Assembly (NCBI RefSeq): GCF_003334355.1
Contig: NZ_QOWP01000008.1
Direction: 5' to 3' (one strand)
Length of the DNA: 64,000 nucleotides
From: Escherichia coli
GTDB taxonomy: Bacteria > Pseudomonadota > Gammaproteobacteria > Enterobacterales > Enterobacteriaceae
The translations under genes and the position numbers were made by a program. Position 1 is the stretch's first letter. The number at the start of each line of letters is the position of its first letter. The notes under the pieces were generated by a model. The model saw only the letters and a list, made by a program, of their open reading frames with translations. It ran no database searches and was not told the DNA's origin. Of the stretch, positions 10,845-41,322 are shown piece after piece.

Positions 10845-12506
10845 ATGAGTGATATAGCATTAACGGTCAGTATTTTGGCTTTGGTGGCAGTCGTCGGTTT
10901 GTTTATCGGCAACGTCAAATTTCGCGGCATAGGATTAGGTATTGGCGGCGTGCTGTTTGGTGGGATCATCGTCGGCCATTTTGTTTCTCAGGCGGGGATG
11001 ACATTAAGTAGCGATATGCTGCATGTTATTCAGGAATTTGGCCTGATTCTGTTCGTTTATACTATCGGGATTCAGGTAGGGCCGGGCTTCTTTGCCTCAT
11101 TGCGCGTCTCCGGATTACGCCTCAACCTGTTTGCTGTTCTGATCGTCATCATCGGTGGTCTGGTTACCGCCATCCTGCATAAACTGTTTGATATTCCACT
11201 GCCGGTAGTGCTGGGGATTTTCTCCGGTGCGGTAACCAATACGCCAGCGCTGGGGGCAGGGCAGCAGATCTTGCGCGACTTGGGTACACCAATGGAAATG
11301 GTCGATCAGATGGGGATGAGTTACGCGATGGCGTATCCATTCGGCATTTGCGGGATATTGTTCACCATGTGGATGTTGCGGGTTATTTTCCGCGTCAATG
11401 TCGAGACAGAAGCCCAGCAGCACGAGTCTTCACGCACCAATGGCGGCGCGCTGATCAAGACTATCAATATTCGCGTTGAGAACCCTAACCTGCATGATTT
11501 AGCCATTAAAGATGTACCGATTCTCAACGGCGACAAAATTATCTGCTCGCGTCTGAAACGAGAAGAAACCCTAAAAGTACCTTCGCCAGATACCATTATC
11601 CAACTGGGCGATTTGCTGCATCTGGTGGGGCAGCCAGCGGATTTACATAATGCGCAACTGGTGATTGGTCAGGAGGTCGATACCTCGCTGTCCACGAAAG
11701 GCACTGATTTGCGCGTCGAGCGTGTGGTGGTCACCAATGAAAACGTGCTTGGTAAGCGTATTCGCGACCTGCATTTTAAAGAACGCTATGACGTTGTTAT
11801 CTCGCGCCTGAACCGTGCCGGGGTCGAACTGGTCGCCAGTGGCGATATCAGCCTGCAGTTCGGCGATATCCTCAATCTGGTGGGGCGTCCGTCCGCAATT
11901 GATGCCGTTGCCAATGTGCTGGGGAATGCGCAGCAAAAACTGCAACAGGTTCAGATGCTGCCAGTGTTTATTGGCATCGGGCTAGGCGTATTGTTAGGTT
12001 CTATTCCCGTCTTTGTGCCAGGATTCCCGGCCGCGTTGAAACTGGGGCTGGCGGGCGGACCGCTGATTATGGCGTTGATCCTCGGGCGTATCGGCAGTAT
12101 CGGCAAGCTGTACTGGTTTATGCCGCCAAGCGCCAACCTCGCGCTGCGGGAGCTGGGGATCGTGCTGTTCCTCTCGGTCGTTGGTCTGAAATCTGGTGGG
12201 GATTTTGTGAATACCCTGGTCAATGGCGAAGGGCTAAGCTGGATTGGTTATGGTGCCCTGATCACCGCCGTTCCGCTGATTACTGTTGGCATTCTGGCGC
12301 GGATGTTAGCCAAAATGAATTACCTGACCATGTGCGGGATGCTGGCAGGTTCCATGACCGATCCTCCGGCGCTGGCGTTTGCTAATAATCTTCATCCAAC
12401 CAGCGGTGCGGCGGCGCTCTCTTACGCCACTGTCTATCCGTTGGTAATGTTCCTGCGCATTATCACCCCCCAATTACTGGCGGTGCTCTTCTGGAGTATC
12501 GGTTAA
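10845..12506 (+). CDS. yidE: Putative AAE-family transporter YidE (two RCK_C/TrkA-C domains)
   Basis: ORF 10821..12506; start at [12 protein letters not shown] gives 553 aa. Confidence 0.85.
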
Positions 12507-13140
12507 CTCTTTTCCGGGTGGAGTCGCCGTAAATGGTACTCCACCTGGTATTCGCTGGCATTTCTGAACATCACTGAATAATTCAAAAACTCCCCGCTCT
12601 CGCTATATGACAACGAGGTTATCCGCAGCAGTGGCGTGTGTTCCGCTACCTTCATTTGCCGCGCCAGCAGTCTATCGGCGAGCACTGGCGTCAGGCTTTC
12701 ATAATTACCGCCAATCAAAATCCCGCACTCTTGTTCAATATATTCAAACTTCGACCCTTCCAGATGTTGCAGCGAAAGATTACGGAACAGTTTTACCGGC
12801 ATATAGCTGTCTTCCAGCATCAGCGGTTTCCCTTCCACAAAACGAACGCGACGGGAGAAGTAGATCTGCTCGTTGATTTGAATCCGTAACTGGCTGGCAA
12901 TGGCCGGAGGCGCAGGCATGATTTCAAAAATCAGCACCTGGCTGGTGACCGTTTTTCCCTGCCGTGGCGGCGGACCACCAATCCCCACGCTACCAGCAGG
13001 TCAATGGCTTTACGGATGGTCATCCGCGATACCGCAAATTCTTCCGCCAACTTTTTTTCACCGGGAAGAAGGCTATTTAGCGTGAAATCTGCGGAATTAA
13101 GTCGAATTCTTAACCGCTCCGCAATGCTTTTGTAGATCAT
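12503..13140 (-). pseudogene. yidP: GntR/HutC-family regulator YidP, apparently frameshifted (HTH part 12931..13140 in one frame, UTRA part 12503..12988 in another)
   Basis: Two overlapping minus-strand ORFs in different frames: N-terminal HTH (MIYKSIAERL...VVRRHG) and C-terminal UTRA effector domain; the frame switch lies near a ggg-aaaaa-cgg run at ~12950-12960. Confidence 0.6.
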
Positions 13141-13435
13141 CTCTAGATCTCTTTTTTGCCTGCAAGCCCGGGTAATGCGCCCACAAGTTCTGCTTAATCG
13201 ATTGAAAAAACATCTTTTTTTTAAACATGTGTTCGATGCTGTGTACCAGTGCTCACAGATGTCTACTTTTTCGCGAAAACGTAGATCTCTACCGCCCAAC
13301 GAAAAGCATGAAAGCGATCACGAATCCCATTGGGTCGTCATGTTCTGCCGATCGCATCTTCCTATCCTCGCTCCAGGCCTGCCGCATAACCAATCAGGCT
13401 TCCTACTTACAGAATTGAGAAAAGAGGATGTGGAA

Positions 13436-17264
<3,829 letters not shown>

Positions 17265-17430
17265 TTTAATATCCCTCCGGCGAATTATGCTCACAACCTG
17301 AACTTAACAGAAAACAATCCGTTCAGGGATACGACGTTTGTATTTTAAGAATCTGACTGCCTGACCCGACGCATTTTACCTCTCCCTATATTCATGCGTC
17401 CGGGACATAAACATAAATAAGGGCTATGAG

Positions 17431-26767: not shown

Positions 26768-26800
26768 CGCGCTTATCGTTAAGGTAAGCGCGTTTTTTTT
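26768..26800 (+). terminator. ilvBN Rho-independent terminator
   Basis: cgcgctta...taagcgcg hairpin followed by T8. Confidence 0.8.
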
Positions 26801-39296: not shown

Positions 39297-39406
39297 TTTT
39301 CCCTCTGCATACTGTTTTGTCGTTTATGTATGCAGGCATGATAGCAAAAATGGCGAGGATGGCTCTGTTTGCGCCACGCCGATTTTTCTTAGCCCAGACT
39401 GGTGAG

Positions 39407-40591
39407 CTAAATATCTTTAATAAACAGCAGGCAAATTATCGCAATACCCAACATCCCTATCGCCAGCCAGAACAACGCATGGTAGCTCCAGATTTCAACC
39501 ATAATTCCGTCAACAGAGCCGGCGATAATCCAGCCGACGCGTGAAGTATTTGCATATAACGTTGTCGCAGAGCCTATTTTTTCAGGCATCAGGTCCTGAA
39601 ATTAAAGCATGCCGATACCACAGAGAATACCAAGGAAGATGGCATTAAGAATTTGCAATTCCAGCTCAACCGCCGGAGTCGTCGCCATGAGTACGCTGGC
39701 GTAAAAACACATTCCACTCACGATAGCAATGAGCATTAATAGTCGCTTGCCAATACGTTTCATGTAATAGCCTGCGATTAACATCATCGGAATTTCCAGA
39801 CCGGCAGCGATACCAATCATTTCTCCAGCCAGTTTATCGGTTAGATGCAGTTCATCAATAATAAATAGCGGCATATTTATCATGTAGAGATTATTCGCCG
39901 CCCACATCATTGAACAGACCACAAAAAGTAGCCGCGTATCCCGCTTCCTGTGGGTGGAGGGTAAAATTTCTACGGGTTGGGTAACGACAGGAATATTTCT
40001 TTGTATTGATGGCAAAAACAACCAGACTATCAGCCCGCAAACAACAAATGCGATGGCAGCGGTGAGATACATCACTTTAAAACTAAATCCCATTGCCAGT
40101 TCATAAGCGAGCGGTGGCCCGATAACCCAGGCAAGCGAGATCTGAGCACGTAAAAATGTACTGAACATGACCGTCTCACGGCCTGTTCTGTCGGCGTGTT
40201 CACGGGCGAGGGCGAACATTTGCGGGTTTGCGGTGGAAGCAAAACTACTCAGAAGTACGCCCGTTGAGAGGAGAATGAAGTAGTTGCGATTCCACGCAAA
40301 AAGCGTGCAGGCCAGCACTCCAAATAAGCAACATAGCAGAATCAGTAATTTACGGTCGCCTTGTTTATCGGAGTGCCTTGCCAGAAATTGACTGACCAGA
40401 ATTCCCATAATAGCGCTACCGGTGAAGAAAAAACCTACCATTATAGGACGGGCTTTCAGTTCATCTGCGAGGAATATACTTAGGGTAGGAGTCTGAAGAG
40501 CGCCCGCAATACCCGTCAGAAAGGCGACAAGTAAAAATGCCGCGGCAGTGAGATCAAGTATTTTTGATGGAGTGGTAGCCGTTTTTTGCAT
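39407..40591 (-). pseudogene. setC: MFS sugar efflux transporter SetC with an in-frame TAA at 39602-39604 (fragments of 329 aa and 60+ aa)
   Basis: ORFs 39602..40591 and 39407..39589 are in the same frame, separated only by a TAA and 4 sense codons; 329+1+4+60 = 394 codons, the length recalled for intact SetC. Confidence 0.7.
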
Positions 40592-41227
40592 TCTTCTGAA
40601 TCACCGGGCGAAAAAATATAACTGAGTTACAAATAAGTACCAGTCGAATGAGTATTGTATTAAGAATTTTTGAGTATCGCTGATACAACCAGAAAGCAAT
40701 GCTAGCGCAATATTATAGGGCCAGCAATTGAGATTATTAGCAAAAGCATGTTAAGAATTAATTACTGAATTTATATATTAATTATAGTAAGGCAATGAGC
40801 TATTTTTGATAGTAAAAATAAAACAAGTTGATTTGATATATTAAATGAACAAATTAATCTTGATGGCAGTCTGATTATTGGTGAAGTTTATAGTCAGTTT
40901 TTTTCGCCAGCGGTTAAAGAAATAGAATAGTCGTATAAAAAAGGGTGTTCTGGGGCGAGTAAAACAACATCTTCACCTTAATGGCGATACAGTTGGCTGA
41001 GAGTCAGCAGGGGGGCAAATCACCTGCAAATAAACACGGCGCATACTGGCGTGAATATCGCGGATGCGTTCGAGGACAGAAGAACCGACAGGCGGATTCT
41101 TCAGCCGCTCATCGTCCATCACAAAACCTTAGACCAGGTATTCCTGAAGCCGATTGAATATTGAGCAGTAGAAAATATCTGGATTGACAGTATTACAAGG
41201 GGTTGGAGAACGTCAGGAGAGGCATTT

Positions 41228-41322
41228 TGGCGGAAGATCACAGGAGTCGAACCTGCCCGGGACCGCTGGCGGCCCCAACTGGATTTGAAGTCCAGCCGCC
41301 TCACCGGAGACGACGATCTTCC
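41228..41322 (-). tRNA. selC: tRNA-Sec (selenocysteine tRNA)
   Basis: 95-nt sequence whose reverse complement reads GGAAGATCGTCGTCTCCGGTGAGGCGGCTGGACTTCAAATCCAGTTGGGGCCGCCAGCGGTCCCGGGCAGGTTCGACTCCTGTGATCTTCCGCCA, with anticodon TCA and encoded CCA end. Confidence 0.95.

Follow-up and report, generated by a model that had tools for sequence, protein, structure and literature searches.

A premature ochre stop at codon 330 of setC, probably a clone-specific nonsense mutation in Escherichia coli

SetA and SetB are experimentally characterised efflux pumps for lactose, glucose and IPTG, and setC (yicK, b3659) encodes the third paralogue of this SET family of MFS sugar-efflux pumps. The only evidence on the substrate of SetC that we found in the literature was an indirect arabinose-reporter result obtained with K-12 SetC (PMC3429515). 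Deletion of setC from K-12 is viable and raises the output of an arabinose-responsive reporter with a modest phenotype (Koita and Rao, 2012; PMC3429515), and over-expression of setC lowers the arabinose reporter and is toxic at high induction (PMC3429515).

The closest counterparts of the allele described here are other natural setC pseudogenes of E. coli and Shigella. As in the present case, the broken setC leaves a 60-codon ORF at the 3' end which is called as a separate small gene; those pseudogenes carry other lesions in other lineages and belong to the M385/TTG334 haplotype, whereas the copy studied here has I385 and CTG334. One of them, the Q332 allele of GCA_000352605.1, is altered two codons away and is truncated at the same TM10/TM11 boundary. 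The locus described below was found in a stretch of 64,000 nt of E. coli DNA (hereafter the window). Its setC shares the locus, neighbours, start and natural stop of the intact setC that K-12 and most commensal strains carry, and differs from the K-12 copy by TAA instead of TAT at codon 330 (329 vs. 394 aa), and also by T255A and M385I. We consider it probable (about 0.87) that the TAA is genuine, a nonsense mutation specific to one small clone, in which it makes setC a pseudogene.

The setC locus and its codon 330

In the window setC occupies the minus strand at 39407-40591 (1185 nt span; 395 codons in one frame, both stops included). The features of the locus are as follows.

39407..39601, minus strand: setC codons 331-394 and the natural TAG (39409-39407), the stranded 3' part (from the ORF list and translation)
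39407-39589, minus strand: 60-codon ORF inside the 3' part of setC, opening at the internal codon for Met335 (ATG 39589)
39602..39604, minus strand: premature ochre stop TAA at setC codon 330 (Tyr TAT in intact alleles)
39605..40591, minus strand: setC codons 1-329, the 5' part (from the ORF list and translation; matches 13P484A setC throughout)
40766..40766, minus strand: private SNP linked to the stop (G to A, read on the setC strand), in AT-rich intergenic DNA 175 nt upstream of the setC ATG
about 40988-41149: rhuM/yicT gene fragment between selC and setC (annotated as a pseudogene in K-12 and other strains)
41228-41322, minus strand: tRNA-Sec (selC)

From the ATG at 40591 the series of ORFs runs through 329 codons, TAA, the four codons TTT CAG GAC CTG, the 60-codon ORF from ATG 39589, and TAG. 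The sum 329 + 1 + 4 + 60 gives 394 sense positions, which is the annotated length of setC (K-12 b3659, 1185 nt, and other strains), and translation of 39407-40591 in one frame reads CGIGML, stop, FQDLMPEKIG across the break. Judged from the reading frames, this layout of a 329-codon and a 60-codon ORF is not a chance arrangement. An earlier note on this DNA had described the two ORFs as lying in one frame, separated only by the TAA at 39602-39604 and four codons; its coordinates, stop and arithmetic were all exact.

The identity of the gene was examined by homology and gene order. A megablast search of 39350-40700 against 5,426 complete RefSeq E. coli genomes returned loci named "setC: sugar efflux transporter", with a best identity of 99.9%. 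In 13P484A, E. coli C, PSS-12 and K-12 MG1655 the setC CDS is 1185 nt long (394 codons plus stop), and the gene order selC - rhuM/yicT fragment - setC - yicL - nlpA is common to the window and these four genomes. The rhuM/yicT fragment is probably the remnant of an element that was formerly integrated at selC. As expected of an orthologue of b3659, the window sequence is nearly identical to setC at the syntenic place between selC and yicL; the uninterrupted frame of 394 codons is lacking, with TAA in frame at codon 330. On these comparisons the locus is a setC pseudogene allele and not a functional-length member.

We then restored Tyr330 in the translated protein and compared it with family profiles. 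The reconstructed protein matched the SET family profile TIGR00899 ("sugar efflux transporter"; TC 2.A.1.20) over its full length (positions 1-375/375) at 646.3 bits, above the cut-off of 522.3. It aligned end to end with the SetB equivalog NF011587 (residues 3-394 vs. profile positions 4-393), but the score of 670.6 bits was below the cut-off of 693. The protein thus resembles SetA and SetB in its above-cut-off match to the SET family profile and in its predicted 12-TM MFS architecture, and it differs from SetB in falling below the SetB equivalog cut-off. By profile score, the setC product is a paralogue of SetB and not SetB itself. The earlier note had named the gene setC and given intact SetC as 394 codons. 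Both identifications held: RefSeq uses that name at the syntenic place and the TIGR00899 score is above the cut-off, and SetC is annotated with 394 aa in K-12 and other strains, not with about 329 aa, the length that the note had said would count against it.

The altered base is position 39602 of the window, which reads A rather than T on the coding strand. This is the sole difference in 1351 nt (99.9% identity) from 13P484A, which has an intact annotated setC of 394 aa. An alignment with the 1185 nt of K-12 setC showed five differences (99.6% identity): a synonymous change at G186, T255A, Y330 (TAT to TAA), a synonymous change at L334 (TTG/CTG) and M385I. Only the change at codon 330 is disruptive, and M385I is also present in 13P484A, a strain with an intact annotated setC. 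All 10 comparison loci that cover codon 330 and do not carry TAA read TAT there (K-12, 13P484A, E. coli C, PSS-12, L020, L022, L024, L026, L027 and L028); among the loci compared, TAA occurs only in the contigs L005, L006 and L015-L017. The base after TAA is T, which gives the tetranucleotide TAAT. The event is a single T-to-A transversion in the third base of codon 330 that turned a TAT Tyr codon of setC into TAA. A single substitution, for example TAT to TAA, had been suggested in the earlier note, along with an alignment to K-12 setC and a comparison of codon 39602-39604 across strains. Exactly this change was seen against both 13P484A and K-12, the K-12 alignment had its one disruptive difference at codon 330, and across strains the codon was TAT in the 10 loci and TAA in L005/L006/L015-L017 only.

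Rarity and authenticity of the stop allele

The frequency of the stop allele was estimated with a 31-mer centred on the variant, for which a match demands an exact 28-nt word containing the variant base. The TAA 31-mer gave 0 matches in the 5,426 complete RefSeq E. coli genomes. A control 31-mer with TAT matched 807 of the 5,426 genomes, and the remaining setC-bearing genomes differ at the nearby synonymous site in codon 334. The 31-mer test with its wild-type control was added because the records returned for a 79-mer were ambiguous. There was no perfect full-length match to the 79-mer in complete genomes, the best full-length match being 98.7% identical (one mismatch). Three 79-mer records with ≥99% identity were considered as carriers and rejected; they were absent from the full-coverage matches and were taken as partial alignments. 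The I385/CTG334 haplotype of the window was paired only with TAT at codon 330 in the complete-genome collection. By these word matches, the stop allele belongs to a small clone outside the complete RefSeq genomes.

In a collection of 15 billion proteins, the exact 329-aa and 60-aa products were both present. The 24 contigs that matched the 329-aa product could not be taken as stop carriers, since 8 of the 10 that were inspected (L007-L014) end inside codon 330. When a truncated product is looked up by exact match, contigs that break off within the codon after it are retrieved as well, and these mimic stop carriers. The TAA itself is contained in L005 and L006 (329-aa look-up) and in L015-L017 (60-aa look-up). 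Assembly GCA_012531255.1 (contig DABAWU010000006.1, 178 kb) is 100% identical to the window over 5,183 nt, TAA included. The same is true of a Logan contig of ERR4578542 that is common to 6 samples (100% identical with TAA, 6,990 nt) and of Logan SRR3823860 (100% identical with TAA, 5,924 nt), so that at least seven read sets assembled by Logan, with accessions under both the ERR and the SRR prefix, contain the allele. These carrier assemblies may stem from one isolate or outbreak clone, and their agreement speaks for a reproducible call rather than for independent origin. A literature search on the run and assembly accessions of the carriers returned nothing useful.

A second change accompanies the stop. 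The intergenic SNP at 40766 is present in every stop-carrying contig (L005, L006, L015-L017) and in 0/16 other loci, including K-12; the TAA at codon 330 together with this linked SNP could mark the clone. Over about 63 kb the window differs from the closest complete genome, PSS-12, by 20 SNPs and one 1-bp indel, and has one IS1 fewer. A low-quality or mutator source was also considered for the window and rejected, as only about 20 SNPs and 1 indel separate it from PSS-12 in 63 kb and no other new disruption was found.

If the TAA were a sequencing or assembly error, the strain would truly have TAT and an intact setC, and a single-base difference that is seen in no complete RefSeq genome would be readily accounted for. 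The error would, however, have had to recur at the identical base in an NCBI assembly and in at least 7 read sets assembled by Logan, within flanks of 5-7 kb that match the window at 100%. The change is a substitution and does not lie in a homopolymer; the 31-nt context occurs with T in 807 genomes and with A in none, which makes a context-driven systematic error unlikely; and the rest of the window has no excess of disruptions relative to its closest relative. Because the same allele occurs in other public assemblies, we take the TAA as real rather than as an assembly error, which on these assemblies is very unlikely. The earlier note had given absence of the stop on resequencing as grounds for abandoning its reading; at the level of assemblies, not of raw reads, the TAA recurs in public data.

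Predicted product and possible rescue

To locate the truncation in the protein, we combined hydropathy prediction with profile coverage. The reconstructed protein has 12 hydrophobic segments (Kyte-Doolittle, 17-residue window), in keeping with the twelve predicted TM helices of a SET-family member, and the 329-aa product keeps the first 10. Hydropathy places segment 10 at residues 314-330, segment 11 at about 352-368 and segment 12 at about 375-391. This puts the stop at the end of predicted TM10, and the 65/394 residues that are lost include TM11 and TM12. The 329-aa ORF covers positions 4-328/393 of NF011587 and 1-311/375 of TIGR00899, and the 60-aa ORF covers 334-393/393 and 317-375/375, respectively; the predicted loss of TM11/TM12 agrees with this coverage of the long and short ORFs. 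The truncated product still scores 530.9 bits on TIGR00899, but over positions 1-311/375 only. A truncated product without the last two TM helices, as proposed in the earlier note, is what both approaches indicate: segments 11 and 12 are missing and NF011587 coverage stops at 328/393. A sequence search detected no solved structure of a SET-family protein.

An MFS transporter requires its two six-helix bundles to be complete, and UAA with a U after it ranks among the most efficient terminators of translation in E. coli. Translation of setC would stop at UAA-U with residue 329 as the last, where TM10 ends. Without TM11 and TM12 the C-terminal six-helix bundle would be incomplete, giving an inactive and probably unstable fragment. 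The 329-aa product is most likely inactive and probably unstable, from which we infer loss of function. A serious fitness cost of the allele would not be expected, which fits the dispensability of setC. A consensus scan found no terminator between setC and yicL, and because none was found, co-transcription of setC with yicL and some polarity of the stop on yicL are possible.

We considered two ways in which the interrupted gene might still be useful. First, the ribosome could re-initiate at AUG335 after UAA330, and TM1-10 and TM11-12 (60 aa) could assemble in the membrane as a working two-piece SetC. Bibi and Kaback are said to have found in 1990 that lactose permease expressed in two fragments works. 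Split LacY is likewise an MFS transporter cut at a loop into two polypeptides, and it is a precedent for the two-piece reading only. The geometry of the setC break is suitable, in that the stop lies at a helix-loop boundary and a complete ORF opens in the same frame 12 nt further downstream. The motif AGGA, 4 nt upstream of ATG335, pairs with the anti-Shine-Dalgarno (anti-SD) sequence at -4.0 kcal/mol, an SD score stronger than that of 82% of 487 internal in-frame ATGs in the same region but weaker than that of 69% of 52 true gene starts. The engineered LacY fragments each had their own expression signals, whereas the second setC piece has a weak SD, and five residues are lost, residues 330-334 (YFQDL) being missing from both pieces. 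Moreover, the two-ORF arrangement is found in one small clone only and without sign of maintenance, and other lineages destroy the gene outright. We regard a functional two-piece SetC as very improbable. If it were true, it would be a natural split MFS transporter made by a single nonsense mutation.

Second, an ochre suppressor tRNA or natural readthrough might still yield enough full-length SetC to be useful. Ochre suppressors are typical of laboratory strains. The window offers no support for suppression, although most tRNA genes lie beyond its 64 kb; tRNA-Sec, the sole tRNA gene close to setC, decodes UGA, and UAA-U is generally known as a very efficient terminator. The probability of this explanation is close to negligible, and simple truncation of SetC after residue 329 is preferred to either form of rescue.

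At least one public assembly, GCA_012531255.1, lists the 60-aa piece as a gene of its own, "sugar transporter". On the preferred reading of a nonsense mutation, the correct annotation for setC of this clone would be a single pseudogene containing an internal stop. If the loss alters intracellular arabinose handling as in the reporter assay of the K-12 deletion, the clone would have a subtle phenotype.

Loss of setC in other E. coli and other features of the window

Loss of setC is common in the species. No setC match was found in 1,131/5,426 complete genomes, and a further 630 cover <80% of the region, so that about a third lack setC or have only part of it. Among the top megablast matches, H7-H10 have IS1 inside setC. 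Loci found through the K-12-type 60-aa ORF provide further examples: in L021, L022, L024 and L027 an IS1 insertion is accompanied by loss of the 5' part of setC, L023 has an IS3-family insertion in setC, and in L025 (EspG) and L026 (integrase, CbtA/CbeA) the 5' part has been replaced by island DNA beside selC. The IS1 copies in setC differ in position and orientation among lineages. An independent nonsense mutation was found in L028 (GCA_000352605.1), in which CAG is changed to TAG at codon 332 (L028 position 2492, equivalent to window position 39598) on the K-12-type haplotype. Taken across these loci, setC, which lies beside the island hot spot at selC, is a dispensable gene that has decayed time and again in E. 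coli.

The disruptions are numerous and independent (IS1 insertions that vary in site and orientation, IS3, deletions, and stops created at codons 330 and 332). They could also be convergent and adaptive, loss of setC being favoured, for example, because it keeps sugar inside the cell or spares the cost of a membrane protein. The toxicity of over-expressed setC and the raised intracellular arabinose signal of the deletion (PMC3429515) would be in line with such selection, as would the second private SNP of the stop clone, which lies 175 nt ahead of setC. The same pattern, however, is predicted by relaxed selection where a dispensable gene adjoins the integration hot spot at selC, and the TAA allele is confined to a tiny clone without sign of spread; an adaptive loss is rather unlikely. 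We concluded that the nonsense allele is ordinary strain-specific decay of a known, annotated and dispensable gene, and that the allele is already in public assemblies.

Several other genes of the window were compared with PSS-12. At 12503-13299 a GntR-type regulator gene is split into ORFs of 161 aa and 122 aa, and at 13175-15052 a PTS IIBC gene (glv-type) is split into ORFs of 256 aa and 364 aa. These two breaks are older and shared between strains, because both genes are annotated as pseudogenes in PSS-12 ("frameshifted" and "internal stop"). A regulator gene at 16371-17294 is intact in the window (307 codons), whereas the PSS-12 copy is split by IS1 into two halves, which the annotation gives as a helix-turn-helix fragment and an AraC-family fragment; this IS1 accounts for the offset of about 777 nt between the window and PSS-12. 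Apart from the IS1, the only indel over about 63 kb is a one-base deletion in the window relative to PSS-12 at 26793, between ilvN and uhpA.
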